From NCBI RefSeq assembly GCF_000027125.1, contig NC_017626.1: DNA of 64,000 nt; one strand, given 5' to 3'. Position 1 is the first letter of the stretch. Each line of letters begins with the position of its first letter. Position numbers and translations under genes: made by a program. The notes under the pieces were generated by a model that was given only the letters and a program-made list of their open reading frames with translations, did no database searches and had not been told where the DNA came from. The DNA is from Escherichia coli 042 (GTDB lineage Bacteria > Pseudomonadota > Gammaproteobacteria > Enterobacterales > Enterobacteriaceae). Shown one piece after another: positions 1-41,716 of this stretch.

Positions 1-263
1 TGGTGTTCGCCAGTAATAAAGATATTGCATTCATCTCAACAATTATTGGGCTAATTGATCATTTTATCGGCCCAATAACCATTGCTGGCATAGTTCTGCT
101 GATCATTGTGGCCAAATTTACTGGCAATCTTAAACTGGGGTCAGGAGAAAAAAGCAACAGGAAAACGGGGAATCGTAATGCTCATTCTCGCTCTTCGTCG
201 AGAAATTCTTTCCGCGGTGGTGGTGGTTCTTCAGGAGGCGGCGGTTCATCCGGACGCTGGTAA
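1..263 (+). CDS. 3' fragment of an ORF (5' end outside window) encoding a transmembrane helix followed by a Gly/Ser-rich tail ending GGGGSSGRW; resembles the C-terminus of the adjacent YgcG/TPM-domain protein
   Basis: Frame open from the window edge to TAA at 261-263; hydrophobic segment IAFISTIIGLIDHFIGPITIAGIVLLIIV then low-complexity tail nearly identical in protein to the ygcG C-terminus but diverged at DNA level. Confidence 0.4.
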   Translation, partial: VFASNKDIAFISTIIGLIDHFIGPITIAGIVLLIIVAKFTGNLKLGSGEKSNRKTGNRNAHSRSSSRNSFRGGGGSSGGGGSSGRW

Positions 264-268
264 TCATT

Positions 269-1162
269 ATGCGCTTAATCTTTTTTCTACTTACTTTATG
301 GTGCCTTCCTGGGCTTGCCCAGCAAATTGCTGTGCCGGAGCTGCGCCAACAGGTGACCGATATTACTGGTACGTTAAGCACGTCTGAACAACAATCACTG
401 ACACAACAGCTGCAGGATATCACACAAAAAACACGGGCCCAGGTCGCCGTATTAATAGTGCCATCCACCGGAGACGATACCATTGAACAATATGCAACAC
501 GCGTTTTTGATAGCTGGAAACTGGGAGATAAGCAGCGAAACGATGGTATTTTACTGCTGGTTGCCTGGGAAGATCATGCTGTCCGTATAGAAGTGGGCTA
601 CGGGCTGGAAGGGGTGGTTACCGATCTGCAAGCAGCGAAGATTATCCGTAATATATTAATCCCAGCCTTCAAAAGTGATGACTTGATGGGTGGGTTAACA
701 CTGGCAAGCGAAAATATCGGAGCGCTTCTGTTGAATGGTGAATTACCGGAAGACAGGGGGGATTATTACAGTATCAATCCCCCTATTCCATTATCGCTTG
801 CTGTAATTATATTGCTGGCGGTACTTTCATATTTTATTGTTTTTACCGATCCGTCGAATTTACCCTGGATAGCACTGACTGGCGGAATTTATGGGATGGT
901 ATTCCTCTATGTTGCCGAGCCAGGACCATGGACGAATTTAATCGTTGCCTGCGGTATGCTCACGCCTTTTGCTATCGTACCACTGGTTATTTTTTGGCTT
1001 ATCGTTAATAAAAAGCTACGCGCCAAATACAAAAAACTCAGTAAAGAAAGAGCTTCAAGAAAAGGTTCTTCTTCATCCTCTTCCGGTGGCGGCTCAAGTG
1101 GCGGCGGATTTAGCGGCGGGGGCGGTTCTTCTGGCGGTGGCGGCGCGTCCGGTCGCTGGTAA
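269..1162 (+). CDS. ygcG: TPM-domain membrane protein YgcG (N-terminal signal peptide, TM segments, Gly/Ser-rich C-terminal tail)
   Basis: 297-aa ORF, ATG at 269 immediately after upstream stop; position upstream of eno as in E. coli. Confidence 0.8.
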   Translation: MRLIFFLLTLWCLPGLAQQIAVPELRQQVTDITGTLSTSEQQSLTQQLQDITQKTRAQVAVLIVPSTGDDTIEQYATRVFDSWKLGDKQRNDGILLLVAWEDHAVRIEVGYGLEGVVTDLQAAKIIRNILIPAFKSDDLMGGLTLASENIGALLLNGELPEDRGDYYSINPPIPLSLAVIILLAVLSYFIVFTDPSNLPWIALTGGIYGMVFLYVAEPGPWTNLIVACGMLTPFAIVPLVIFWLIVNKKLRAKYKKLSKERASRKGSSSSSSGGGSSGGGFSGGGGSSGGGGASGRW

Positions 1163-1171
1163 CTCAACCAT

Positions 1172-1203
1172 AAAAAATGCCAGCCCGAAGGCTGGCATTT
1201 TTA
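1172..1203. terminator. Bidirectional rho-independent terminator between convergent ygcG and eno
   Basis: A-run, 9-bp stem aatgccagc/gctggcatt with 6-nt loop, T-run. Confidence 0.6.
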
Positions 1204-1221
1204 AATCAGATAAAGTCAGAC

Positions 1222-2535
<1,314 letters not shown>

Positions 2536-2607: not shown

Positions 2608-4260
<1,653 letters not shown>

Positions 4261-4472
4261 TTAGGTTGAAAAGACGATGGAATAACCAGGACGGGAAAGC
4301 AGTATACCCGAACATGACCTGTGCCACAAACTTTCATTATCCCTCCTCTTCGCCAGCGCACTATTGAAATCAGGAGTGAGAAAATAGCCCCTTTGGGGTA
4401 AATGTTTTTGACGCAAATCAAGCGCTTGTCATTTAAAAAATGACACAAATCGCGCTTGACCACGTAATTCCC

Positions 4473-5264
4473 TTAGAGATCAATTTCCTGCCGTTTTACC
4501 TGTTGCCAGACTTCTTCCATTGTTTCGAGGTCAACACCTGTCATTTCCAGTCCACGCGCGGCAACAATACGCTCCACTTCGCGAAAACGGCGCTCGAATT
4601 TTTCATTGGCTTTTTGTAGTGCAATCTCTGCTTTTGTCCCTAAATGGCGTGCCATGTTGACCGTGGCAAACAGCAGGTCACCCATTTCCTCCTCCAGTTT
4701 AGCCTGGTCGATAACAGCCTGCCGCGCCTCGTACATCACCTCGTCGATCTCTTCGTAGACTTTATCGACTACCGGACCAAGCGTCGTCCAGTCGAAACCA
4801 ACGTTGGCGCAACGTTTCTGGATTTTTTGCGCACGCATTAAAGCCGGTAAACTACGAGGAATATCGTCCAGCGCTGAATGCTGCGCTTTCTGCGCGCGCT
4901 CTTCGGTTTTGATTTGCTCCCAACGGGTAAGCACTTCACTACTGTTTTCGGCAGAACTGTCAGCAAAAACATGCGGATGGCGACGCTCTAATTTATCGCT
5001 AATAGCAGCGCAAATATCATTAAAGTCAAAGCGCCCTTCTTCCTGAGCCATTTGCGCGTAAAACACCACCTGGAATAGCAGATCGCCCAGTTCACCGCGA
5101 AGATCGTCAAAATCTTCACGGGCGATGGCGTCCAGCACTTCGTAGGTTTCTTCAAGGGTGTAAGGCGCAATGGTGGCAAATGTCTGCTCTTTATCCCACG
5201 GGCAGCCGTTTTCCGGGTCGCGCAGGCGCTGCATAATAGTGAGCAAACGGTCGATTTGATTCAT
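4473..5264 (-). CDS. mazG: Nucleoside triphosphate pyrophosphohydrolase MazG
   Basis: 263-aa ORF with tandem MazG domains; synteny downstream of relA. Confidence 0.92.
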   Translation of the reverse strand: MNQIDRLLTIMQRLRDPENGCPWDKEQTFATIAPYTLEETYEVLDAIAREDFDDLRGELGDLLFQVVFYAQMAQEEGRFDFNDICAAISDKLERRHPHVFADSSAENSSEVLTRWEQIKTEERAQKAQHSALDDIPRSLPALMRAQKIQKRCANVGFDWTTLGPVVDKVYEEIDEVMYEARQAVIDQAKLEEEMGDLLFATVNMARHLGTKAEIALQKANEKFERRFREVERIVAARGLEMTGVDLETMEEVWQQVKRQEIDL

Positions 5265-5322
5265 TGAATTGTCCTGAAAATTGCGGGTCTGTCAGGTGTA
5301 ATACCTTCGAGTAAAAGATATC

Positions 5323-5350
5323 GCTGGATACGGCTGACGCCATATCCAGC
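5323..5350 (-). other. Hairpin (8-bp perfect stem gctggata/tatccagc, 12-nt loop) in the relA-mazG spacer; possible attenuator or terminator
   Basis: Inverted repeat read directly; on the minus-strand transcript it is followed by gatatcTTTTac. Confidence 0.35.
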
Positions 5351-5359
5351 TATATAAGA

Positions 5360-7594
5360 CTAACTCCCGTGCAACCGACGCGCGTCGATAACATCCGGCA
5401 CCTGGTTGAGTTTACCCAGCACGCGCCCCAGCACTTGCAGGTTGTAAATCTCAATGGTCATGTCGATGGTCGCCAGTTGCTGTTTGGTATCGCTACGGCT
5501 GGCAACGCCAAGCACGTTCACTTTCTCATTGGCGAGAATGGTCGTGATATCACGTAACAACCCACTACGATCATTAGCCACCACGCGGACCACCAGCGAA
5601 TATCCGGCGGAGTAGCTCTCACCCCATACCGCGTCAACAATGCGTTCTGGCGCATGGGAGCGCAGTTCCGCCAGTTGTTCGCAATCGGCGCGGTGTACTG
5701 AAATACCGCGTCCCTGGGTAATGAAGCCGACAATCTCATCTCCAGGAATCGGCTGGCAGCAGCGCGCGATGTGGTGCATCAGGTTACCGACACCTTCAAC
5801 CACCACACGACCGTTATCTTTACTGCGGTTTTGCGGCGTATAGCTTTTTTGCTGAAGTTGCTTCAGCGCGGCGGCATCCTGCTCTTCGGCACTCGGCTTA
5901 TTAAATTGCGATTGCAGGAAGTTCACCATCTGATTGAGACGGATATCCCCGCCACCAATTGCCGCCAGCAACTCGTCGACATCATTGAAGTTGTAACGCG
6001 GCAGCAGATGTTTTTCTGCTTCTTTCAGGCTGATCCCCAGATGTTCCAGCTCGTCGTCAAGGATTTGCCGCCCAGCCAGAATGTTTTTGTCACGGTCCTG
6101 TTTACGGAACCAAGCGTGAATTTTCGAACGCCCACGGCTGGTTGTGACGTAACCGAGGTTTGGGTTTAACCAGTCACGGCTGGGGTTCGGCTGTTTCTGG
6201 GTGATAATTTCAATCTGGTCGCCCATCTGCAGCTGGTAGGTGAACGGCACAATGCGCCCGCCTATTTTTGCCCCGATGCAGCGGTGTCCGACATCACTGT
6301 GGATGTGGTAAGCGAAGTCCAGCGGCGTTGATCCCGCAGGCAAATCAACAACATCACCTTTCGGCGTAAAGACATACACCCGGTCGTCAAAGACCTGGCT
6401 GCGTACTTCGTCGAGCATTTCGCCGGAATCAGCCATCTCTTCCTGCCACGCAATCAGTTTACGCAGCCAGGCAATCCGGTCTTCATGTCCCGAACGTGCG
6501 CCGCCAGCAGCCGCGCCCTCTTTATATTTCCAGTGCGCAGCAACACCCAACTCTGCATCTTCATGCATCTGTTTGGTGCGGATTTGGATCTCAACGGTTT
6601 TGCCACCCGGCCCCAGAACCACGGTATGAATAGACTGATAACCGTTTGGTTTCGGGTTAGCGACGTAATCGTCAAACTCATCCGGCAGGTGGCGATAGTG
6701 AGTGTGCACTATCCCCAGTGCGGCATAACAATCCTGTAAACGCTCGGCGACAATACGTACCGCACGCACATCAAACAGCTCATCGAAGGCGAGGTTCTTT
6801 TTCTGCATTTTGCGCCAGATGCTGTAGATGTGTTTCGGTCGACCATACACTTCAGCTTTAACGCCTTCAGCTTTCATCTCAGCGCGCAGATGGCCGACAA
6901 ACTCTTCGATATAGTGTTCGCGGTCGAGACGGCGTTCATGCAGCAGTTTTGCGATGCGTTTGTATTCGGTCGGGTGGAGATAACGGAAGCAGTAATCTTC
7001 CAGCTCCCATTTCAGTTGTCCAATCCCAAGACGGTTCGCCAACGGCGCGTAGATATTGGTGCACTCTTTTGCCGCCAGTACGCGTTCATCTTCCGGCGCG
7101 TCTTTTACTTCGCGCAGATGAGCAATACGCTCTGCCAGTTTGATGACCACGCAGCGGAAATCATCGACCATCGCCAATAACATCCGGCGAACGTTATCGA
7201 CCTGTTCGGAGGAAACAGAATCGGTATGCGTCGCTTTCAGCTGGCGGATCGCCGCCATATCACGCACGCCGTGAATAAGGTTAACGACCGACTTACCGAC
7301 GCTCTCACGCAGCACATCTTCGCTGACTACGTTGGCATCCGCCAGAGGGAACAGCAGCGCCGCCCGCAGCGTGTCAATGTCCATACTTAATGTCGAGAGG
7401 ATCTCCACCATCTCAACACCACGCCACAATAACAGACTGGCATCCGGATGCCCCTGCGTCTGTTGCAGACAATACGCCCAGGTTTCGGCTAAGCACTCAC
7501 ACGACTTCTGGCTGGTAATACCCAGACTTGCGATCCATTTTTCCGGATCAAATTCACCAGCCTTATTGATATGTGCACTTCTTACCGCAACCAT
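5360..7594 (-). CDS. relA: GTP pyrophosphokinase, (p)ppGpp synthetase I
   Basis: 744-aa ORF ending RRLHGS; recognised as E. coli RelA. Confidence 0.97.
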   Translation of the reverse strand: MVAVRSAHINKAGEFDPEKWIASLGITSQKSCECLAETWAYCLQQTQGHPDASLLLWRGVEMVEILSTLSMDIDTLRAALLFPLADANVVSEDVLRESVGKSVVNLIHGVRDMAAIRQLKATHTDSVSSEQVDNVRRMLLAMVDDFRCVVIKLAERIAHLREVKDAPEDERVLAAKECTNIYAPLANRLGIGQLKWELEDYCFRYLHPTEYKRIAKLLHERRLDREHYIEEFVGHLRAEMKAEGVKAEVYGRPKHIYSIWRKMQKKNLAFDELFDVRAVRIVAERLQDCYAALGIVHTHYRHLPDEFDDYVANPKPNGYQSIHTVVLGPGGKTVEIQIRTKQMHEDAELGVAAHWKYKEGAAAGGARSGHEDRIAWLRKLIAWQEEMADSGEMLDEVRSQVFDDRVYVFTPKGDVVDLPAGSTPLDFAYHIHSDVGHRCIGAKIGGRIVPFTYQLQMGDQIEIITQKQPNPSRDWLNPNLGYVTTSRGRSKIHAWFRKQDRDKNILAGRQILDDELEHLGISLKEAEKHLLPRYNFNDVDELLAAIGGGDIRLNQMVNFLQSQFNKPSAEEQDAAALKQLQQKSYTPQNRSKDNGRVVVEGVGNLMHHIARCCQPIPGDEIVGFITQGRGISVHRADCEQLAELRSHAPERIVDAVWGESYSAGYSLVVRVVANDRSGLLRDITTILANEKVNVLGVASRSDTKQQLATIDMTIEIYNLQVLGRVLGKLNQVPDVIDARRLHGS

Positions 7595-18096: not shown

Positions 18097-18141
18097 AAAG
18101 CAACCTCAATAAGAAAAACTGCCGCGAAGGATAGCAGGAAT

Positions 18142-18507
18142 AAAAAAAGGGAGCACTGTATTCACAGTGCTCCCGGTTCGTTTCGCAGCATTCCAGCTAC
18201 TTTTGTTGCTCCCTGCTCATCCTTGACAACTTTTCCTCTGGCCTTGCGGCCAATCGTTCATCCTGAACTATTGCTTCCTGCTCACACCACCCCGATGTGA
18301 TACTTCATCCTGAAGTGTCCCTGGCCTTCCTGGCCCACCGAATCATCCTGACCGGTTCTCATTCTCCATCCTGGAGGTGTCCTTTAACGCGTCCTGCGTC
18401 ATCCTCTTCGCTTCATCCAGAAGCCTTTCCCTGAAACACCATCCTGGTGTGTCCTTCAGAAGTGTCATCATCCTGATGTTCACTTCGTTGTCTGACTCCC
18501 TGTCGAC
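18142..18507 (-). ncRNA. csrB: CsrB small RNA (CsrA-sequestering sRNA)
   Basis: Minus strand begins GTCGACAGGGAGTCAGACAACGAAGTGAACATCAGGATG and carries at least 10 CAGGA(U/A)G-type GGA motifs; ends in hairpin gggagcactgtgaatacagtgctccc plus U-run at 18149-18174. Confidence 0.85.
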
Positions 18508-36727: not shown

Positions 36728-36933
36728 ACTTCCTGAGCCGGAACGAAAAGTTTTATCGGAATGCGTGTTCTGGTGAACTTTTGGCTTACGGTTGTGATGT
36801 TGTGTTGTTGTGTTTGCAATTGGTCTGCGATTCAGACCATGGTAGCAAAGCTACCTTTTTTCACTTCCTGTACATTTACCCTGTCTGTCCATAGTGATTA
36901 ATGTAGCACCGCCTAATTGCGGTGCTTTTTTTT
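36728..36933 (+). ncRNA. gcvB: GcvB small RNA, divergent from gcvA
   Basis: ACTTCCTGAGCCGGAACGAAAAG start, GU-rich repeats (gttgtgatgttgtgttgttgtgtttg), two hairpin/U-run terminators, the last ending in T8 at 36926-36933. Confidence 0.85.
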
Positions 36934-41418: not shown

Positions 41419-41495
<77 letters not shown>

Positions 41496-41528
41496 ATTAA
41501 AATTTGATGAAGTAAAGCAGTACGGTGA

Positions 41529-41605
<77 letters not shown>

Positions 41606-41639
41606 ATCAAAATTTGATGAAGTAAAAGCAGTACGGTGA

Positions 41640-41716
<77 letters not shown>

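Follow-up and report, generated by a model that had tools for sequence, protein, structure and literature searches.

Wherever the role of a TPM domain is known, the domain lies on the outer face of an energy-transducing or receptor membrane and serves as an accessory or assembly factor. The founding members of the family, Psb32 and TLP18.3, act on photosystem II in its repair and assembly (bioRxiv 10.1101/2025.05.08.652833). CcoZ (Cj1484) is needed for cbb3 oxidase activity in Campylobacter (PMC8267372). Together with MSMEG_4692 of the mycobacterial CIII2CIV2 supercomplex, it offers a precedent for a TPM protein that assists a complex of the inner membrane. Phosphatase or ATPase activity or metal binding has been reported for some TPM members, but a phosphatase role has been doubted. 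[quoted passage not shown] YdjH, compared here by its description, is the TPM protein of the envelope-stress operon pspA-ydjGHI in Bacillus subtilis. When a Flavobacterium sppA mutant is under membrane stress, lemA rises along with a TPM gene.

E. coli K-12 has a TPM protein of its own, YgcG (b2778, UPF0603/COG1512). A literature search on YgcG, on LemA plus TPM, and on COG1512/COG1704 found no functional study of E. coli YgcG, of the gene cassette described below, or of the Gly-rich tail its proteins carry. The Psb32 preprint mentions a Gly-rich extension of bacterial homologs in one sentence (bioRxiv 10.1101/2025.05.08.652833), and beyond that sentence no mention of the tail was found in the literature.

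The DNA considered here is a 64-kb stretch of the E. coli 042 chromosome, referred to as the window. Its left edge falls inside a TPM gene, called TPM2, which is followed by a second one, TPM3. Taken as a whole, the fragment at the edge is very probably the 3' end of a gene that is annotated and intact and stands third in a cassette. The product of this gene carries a tail that is a hallmark of its family and has a putative envelope role. The identity of the cut gene is held with high confidence, and the mechanism proposed for the LemA/TPM assembly and its tails with low to moderate confidence.

The gene at the window edge and its neighbor

Frame 3 of the plus strand is open from base 3 of the window, closes with TAA at 261-263 and codes for 86 residues, which consist of a hydrophobic stretch and then ...SRSSSRNSFRGGGGSSGGGGSSGRW. 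The C-terminal end of this fragment (window 3-263) is GGGGSSGGGGSSGRW, or in longer form ...FRGGGGSSGGGGSSGRW. The next open reading frame, TPM3, ends with GGGGSSGGGGASGRW, or in longer form ...FSGGGGSSGGGGASGRW. The features of the window that are referred to in the text are the following.

1..263, plus strand: 3' end of TPM2, codons 297-382 and the stop (open frame; identical to Ecol_316 locus 6001-6263)
24..119, plus strand: last TM helix of TPM2, residues 304-335, the fifth after the signal peptide (hydropathy, AlphaFold2)
123..260, plus strand: predicted disordered tail of TPM2, residues 337-382, rich in Ser/Arg/Asn/Gly (pLDDT below 50)
210..260, plus strand: C-terminal motif of TPM2, F-R-GGGG-SS-GGGG-S-S-G-R-W (match to the family logo, with Ser for Ala at -5)
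269..1162, plus strand: TPM3, 297 aa, "TPM domain-containing / YgcG family protein", WP_001236716.1 (ORF; Pfam TPM_phosphatase 133 bits; RefSeq)
1109-1159, plus strand: C-terminal motif of TPM3, as in TPM2 (sequence)
1173..1202, no strand assigned: hairpin terminator between TPM3 and the convergent eno (fold of 1160-1215)
18139-18498: csrB, as expected for the E. coli chromosome here
36728-36933: gcvB, likewise expected here
41419-41716: three tandem tRNA-Met genes, likewise expected here

The initial annotation had described a cut-off upstream ORF with a TM helix and a Gly-rich tail like that of its neighbor, and the frame, the tails and the chance controls agree with that description. TPM2 and TPM3 agree in 14 of their last 15 residues and differ in one, a Ser/Ala replacement. 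When the 47-residue TPM2 tail was shuffled 200,000 times, no shuffle gave 14/15 matches (maximum 11), and shuffling of the last 15 residues alone never attained this score either (maximum 13). When all six frames of the 64-kb window were read from stop to stop, Gly-rich-tail endings were found in the TPM2 and TPM3 frames only. In BLASTP with composition correction, the tail of the 86-aa fragment was not significant against TPM3 (E about 1), and the fragment alone gave no match to a TPM profile. The paralogy of TPM2 and TPM3 rests on the full-length protein, whose N-terminal TPM domain is encoded upstream of the window.

Where does the cut frame begin? A Megablast search of 5,426 complete E. 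coli genomes found window positions 1-1300 in Ecol_316 at 99.9% identity, with one mismatch (position 1275). The upstream 886 bp and the remaining cassette genes were read from this near-identical public genome, not from the window. The frame, which could have closed just upstream of the window, runs on for these 886 bp to an ATG. The complete gene is an annotated CDS in Ecol_316 (5115-6263 of the locus extract) that encodes a 382-aa "TPM domain-containing protein" (WP_001217985.1). In other words, the fragment looks truncated because the window edge cuts an intact annotated gene. Since the gene, the protein and the family are already in RefSeq, TPM2 is already known and ordinary.

The hairpin between TPM3 and eno has a 13-bp stem and folds with -20.3 kcal/mol (z = -6.4 against shuffles). 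With its flanking A-run and T-run, it could act bidirectionally. A 117-aa antisense ORF (130-483, minus strand) spans the TPM2/TPM3 junction. It has no RefSeq annotation and was set aside as a gene, being most likely a shadow frame. The remaining window is ordinary E. coli chromosome, with eno, pyrG, mazG, csrB, gcvB and the three tRNA-Met genes. In an annotation comparison, mazEF, which lies between mazG and relA in K-12, was absent from the window, where about 95 nt (5265-5359) separate mazG and relA.

Organization of the queE-eno cassette

The gene order of the locus in Ecol_316 is queE (minus strand), lemA (200 aa), TPM1 (297 aa), TPM2 (382 aa), TPM3 (297 aa) and eno (minus strand). The lemA gene (PF04011) lies upstream of the TPM genes on the same strand, outside the window. 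The domain search that the initial annotation had called for identified the upstream lemA product as LemA (164 bits) and full-length TPM2 as TPM_phosphatase (76.5 bits, compared to 139 bits for TPM1 and 133 bits for TPM3). The two genes at the window edge are tandem paralogs, as that annotation had suggested they might be, but the complete set is three TPM genes plus lemA. The intergenic gaps from lemA through TPM1 and TPM2 to TPM3 are 13, 14 and 5 nt. Because these gaps measure only 5-14 nt, the four genes probably form an operon. In a promoter and terminator scan, the cassette had fewer promoter-like sites than its shuffled versions, and the hairpin terminator found by folding went undetected.

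By global protein alignment, TPM1 and TPM2 are 38% identical, TPM1 and TPM3 48%, and TPM2 and TPM3 36%. The TPM domains of the paralogs align at E 5e-30 (TPM2 and TPM3, 39% identical) and 3e-31. At 36-48% identity, the three proteins are old paralogs. A recent tandem duplication, or gene conversion between neighbors, would also make the two tails alike, and TPM2 and TPM3 do lie side by side, 5 nt apart, with 14 of 15 final residues in common. However, 8 of the 14 shared codons differ synonymously at the third position, the remainder of the two proteins is only 36-39% identical, and the same tail is present in distant bacteria. The data already contradict this explanation, and there is next to no chance that it is correct. 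The initial annotation had noticed that the tail DNAs differ synonymously and had favored an old duplication or a shared motif over a recent repeat, and both the divergence of the TPM domains and the family-wide occurrence of the tail bear this out.

The cassette resembles loci in Pseudomonas aeruginosa, Bartonella and Methylocaldum, in which lemA is also followed directly by a tail-bearing TPM gene. These loci have one such gene (Methylocaldum with an additional short, tail-less one), whereas the Escherichia cassette has three. The genomic partners of YdjH in B. subtilis, PspA and a band-7 protein, differ from those of the cassette.

The exact TPM3 protein is present on at least 1000 public contigs. 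A look-up of the exact TPM2 sequence in the protein collection gave no match, a result that says nothing about how often this exact sequence occurs. Two other identities were considered and rejected. The idea of a defense island was dropped, despite a neighboring CRISPR array and mazEF, because a PADLOC-DB scan of LemA and TPM1-3 gave no defense-protein match; in the same scan, the sole match of K-12 YgcG was DrmB at chance level (E 0.0075). Likewise, a similarity to the YxzE-like putative bacteriocin family (PF25184) scored 19.7-25 bits against a cutoff of 40 and involved the TM/Gly-rich stretch alone, driven by composition.

Domain architecture and predicted membrane topology of TPM2

Full-length TPM2 belongs to the TPM family (Pfam PF04536, TLP18.3/Psb32/MOLO-1), which it matches over residues 23-149 with its 76.5 bits against a cutoff of 22.1. 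Within the family it falls in the YgcG-type branch, whose members combine a signal peptide, a TPM domain, a TM block and a Gly-rich C-terminus. Its N-terminus is hydrophobic and predicted to be a signal peptide (MRIFLLLLMLCGFQVFA). An AlphaFold2 model built on a 64-sequence alignment has a mean pLDDT of 65.9 and is confident in the TPM domain (pLDDT 80-92). The model places helices at 171-194, 200-216 and 221-252, a low-confidence Lys-rich loop at 253-277, and then a hairpin of helices at 278-300 and 304-335. The hydrophobic stretch recognized in the initial annotation corresponds to the end of the fourth of these helices together with the fifth. Thus, TPM2 is predicted to consist of a Sec signal peptide, a periplasmic TPM domain, five TM helices that anchor it between the domain and the tail, as in YgcG-type proteins, and a disordered tail of about 46 residues. 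A full-length TPM2 with this enlarged five-helix membrane block was found only in Escherichia in the full-length TPM2 search. The tail is probably cytoplasmic in this model, on the opposite side from the TPM domain, because of the signal peptide and five TM helices, the Lys-rich loop at 253-277, and a charge asymmetry across the family. LemA bears the lipobox LSGC and should therefore face the periplasm.

The TPM fold is a mixed alpha/beta sandwich, and a Foldseek search of the PDB with the TPM2 model gave 5anp (BA41) as the best match (E 3.7e-9, TM-score on target 0.83), with further matches to 2kw7 (PG0361), 7tbr (Rhom172_1776), 8c7i (Psb32) and 3ptj (TLP18.3). A phmmer search of the PDB with TPM2 also matched 7tbr (E 2.5e-12). 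Psb32 and TLP18.3 share the fold of TPM2 at E 5e-6 to 1e-5 and have the same general arrangement, in which the TPM domain lies outside the cytoplasm and a membrane anchor is C-terminal to it. However, Psb32 has a single TM helix and lacks a Gly-rich extension (bioRxiv 10.1101/2025.05.08.652833). Scores against the NCBIfam Psb32 model are 34-40 bits, far under its cutoff of 160, and E. coli has no photosystem. The TPM domain of MSMEG_4692 also matches TPM2 structurally, as seen with the supercomplex chains 8ovc_V, 6hwh_O and 6adq_J. MSMEG_4692 and CcoZ belong, unlike TPM2, to the DUF5130 branch, and the queE-eno locus has no evident link to a respiratory complex.

Distribution of the cassette and its relation to the K-12 locus

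The cassette (at least 80% of its 3.8 kb) was found in 1102 of 5426 complete E. coli genomes (about 20%), including O157:H7 strains and NRG857C, and UTI89 matches it at the lemA end. The K-12 arrangement, yqcG with one ygcG, is present in 3924 of the 5426. E. albertii has the four-gene cassette at the same locus between queE and eno. At this locus, Klebsiella spallanzanii has lemA, TPM1 and a TPM2 homolog that lacks the TPM domain but keeps a signal peptide, a multi-helix membrane block and a perfect tail.

Three further observations concern individual genomes. In E. coli Z142-3, a third arrangement combines lemA and a single TPM1-like gene with a hydrophobic ORF of 120 aa (locus extract 4230-4592), which is unrelated to TPM2 and TPM3 and takes their place; the TPM gene is called "partial" in RefSeq, yet its ORF reads through to a normal tail. 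In O157:H7 NE1127, TPM1 (extract 989-1896) has an in-frame stop at codon 225, and the remainder with the tail is still encoded downstream; this O157:H7 lineage thus has one truncated paralog. In the K. spallanzanii extract (5001-7468), the TPM2 homolog is followed by a stretch of about 1.6 kb, and the repeats in its translation (...GLSPLARGT...RFIPAGAGNT...) resemble a CRISPR array.

How do the window genes relate to K-12 ygcG? YgcG is like them in having a signal peptide, a TPM domain, a TM block and a locus beside eno. Its last 17 residues are identical to those of TPM3, and its 3' end with the terminator is about 95% identical in DNA to window 1081-1300. However, the window strain carries lemA and three TPM genes, and K-12 a single TPM gene without lemA. 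Neither TPM2 nor TPM3 can be taken as the ortholog (allele) of ygcG, as they are 31% and 44% identical to YgcG in protein and K-12 DNA matches the window in Megablast only from position 1081 onward. The initial annotation had placed "ygcG" directly downstream of the cut gene; the gene there is of the YgcG family but is not the K-12 allele. Among the 120 matches listed in a search with K-12 YgcG, there were E. coli alleles only (81-98% identity).

The other K-12 gene at the locus, yqcG, encodes a stress-induced 46-aa protein that NCBI names a cell envelope stress response protein. The queE-side intergenic region, common to both arrangements, binds PhoP in K-12. The first 91 nt beside queE are identical in K-12 and the cassette strain, and yqcG (extract 5056-5196) aligns in the same order and reading frame to the 5' end of lemA (Ecol_316 3591-3680). 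YqcG residues 12-41 align to LemA residues 1-30, with loss of the lipobox Cys. The score of the DNA local alignment was attained by 2 of 2000 shuffles with the cassette lemA and by 0 of 2000 with the lemA of the third arrangement. At the protein level, the corresponding numbers were 69 of 2000 with the cassette LemA and 0 of 2000 with that of the third arrangement. It appears that yqcG is a relic of the 5' end of lemA, left by deletion or replacement.

The cassette looks ancestral and the K-12 form reduced, because the cassette occupies the same locus in E. albertii and, in part, in K. spallanzanii. In other words, the direction of change would be loss of the cassette in most strains rather than gain in a few. 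The initial annotation had suggested a strain-specific tandem paralog. TPM2 is indeed a paralog whose presence varies by strain, but the polarity is reversed, as it is K-12 that looks reduced.

A conserved Gly-rich tail

When full-length TPM2 was used as a query, nearly all full-length matches ended with ...GGGG..GGGG[AS]SG.W, although such a search picks its candidates via shared words and is hence tail-biased. A control query without the tail (TPM3 residues 1-162) was therefore searched against 1.84 billion cluster representatives (50% identity). About 111 of the best 150 representatives carried the tail at the C-terminus, and the rest mostly look like fragments or frame-shifted calls. The logo of the motif is [FWY]-S-GGGG-x-[SF]-GGGG-A-S-G-x-W. 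In the tailed set (n=111), S at -4 occurs in 99%, A at -5 in 90% and G at -6 to -8 in 99-100%; the terminal W is at 100% by the selection criterion of the set. The end of TPM2 fits the logo except for S in place of A at -5, a variant present in 8% of the 111. A query with a 49-aa tail-only protein gave short E. coli/Shigella fragments only. As the tailed representatives share only about 45% identity with the query in their TPM domains, the strict tail is the more strongly conserved part. Judged from these alignments, the tail motif characterizes the YgcG-type TPM subfamily as a whole, and selection has maintained it despite the divergence at synonymous sites.

The hydrophobic block of family members spans a median of about 78 residues. 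Across the family, D+E is 2.96 in the 20 residues before the TM block and 0.70 after it. A crude hydropathy count gave a mode of 2, not three, strong TM segments in many members. The acidic depletion fits a cytoplasmic tail, but this side is not secure for every member.

TPM2 alleles vary within the motif. In addition to S at -5, O157:H7 has G380V, NRG857C has G380D, and several E. albertii alleles have lost the terminal W. The TPM2 tail is thus less canonical than those of TPM1 and TPM3, and its departures from the consensus suggest a weaker constraint on this copy.

A simpler reading of the tail is that of a low-complexity flexible spacer kept by its composition, without a specific partner or role. 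The disorder predicted by AlphaFold2, the disappearance of the tail signal under BLASTP composition correction, and the tolerance of TPM2 alleles for changes at -3 and -5 and even for loss of W are all as such a spacer would have them. However, composition does not account for an exact pattern in which a pair of GGGG blocks, with a fixed distance between them, is followed by A-S-G at positions -5 to -3 (90-99%) and by W as the last residue. This pattern is held across representatives whose TPM domains are so divergent and is retained perfectly in the Klebsiella homolog that has no TPM domain. A mere spacer is thus unlikely.

The tail could also be a "slippery" end that shields the protein from extraction or degradation by cytoplasmic AAA+ proteases such as FtsH, rather than a docking peptide. 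Gly-rich tracts impair the grip of AAA+ unfoldases, and the tail is long, has a very high Gly content and probably lies in the cytoplasm. This role leaves the invariant A-S-G-x-W tip and the aromatic residue at -17 unexplained, and it is rated somewhat below the spacer. Another possibility, advanced here tentatively and with the odds against it, is that the C-terminal peptide GGGG-x-[SF]-GGGG-A-S-G-x-W-COOH is a specific cytoplasmic docking signal, through which LemA/TPM assemblies that face the periplasm would be connected to a conserved housekeeping partner inside the cell.

Selection on TPM2

Between E. coli and E. albertii, omega of TPM2 is 0.26 over its full length and 0.22 over the 87 codons that fall inside the window; by this measure, TPM2 is under purifying selection. 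A separate observation is that dS between the two species (E. albertii extract 5001-6146 versus Ecol_316 5115-6263) is very uneven along the gene: the TPM domain has 0.57, codons 161-296 have 0.08 and the final 87 codons 0.15. This unevenness suggests between-species recombination inside the gene.

Is TPM2 a redundant paralog that is decaying toward a pseudogene? Its TPM domain scores lowest of the three (76.5 versus 133-139 bits), its tail is off consensus, and in several alleles of E. albertii the tail lacks the final W. In addition, the Klebsiella homolog has lost its TPM domain, and the whole cassette is lost or reduced in most E. coli. Decay nevertheless seems improbable. The full-length ORF is intact in the window strain (read via Ecol_316), O157:H7, NRG857C and E. 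albertii, the omega values are low both overall and in the window part, and even the Klebsiella variant has kept the five-helix membrane block.

Proposed function and implications

By analogy with other TPM proteins, namely Psb32/TLP18.3, the TPM-fold subunit of the mycobacterial supercomplex, CcoZ and MOLO-1, LemA and the TPM proteins would most likely be helpers of membrane complexes on the outer face of the inner membrane. In the proposed mechanism, the LemA lipoprotein and the three TPM membrane proteins would form a periplasm-facing assembly in the inner membrane. This assembly may supply accessory or assembly factors for membrane complexes and contribute to envelope upkeep. The Gly-rich tails would be flexible cytoplasmic tethers, each with a specific recognition tip (A-S-G-x-W).

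For the window itself, these results are of little import, as its edge cuts an annotated gene and the apparent repeat is a family signature. For the family, they point to a C-terminal peptide that is common to TPM/YgcG proteins in many bacteria and is stricter than the TPM domain. If the docking signal is real, the three-paralog cassette of Escherichia would show three such tips at once. For E. coli, the queE-eno region of K-12 looks like a reduced version of an older cassette of lemA and three TPM genes, and studies of ygcG and yqcG in K-12 would then address a remnant system.
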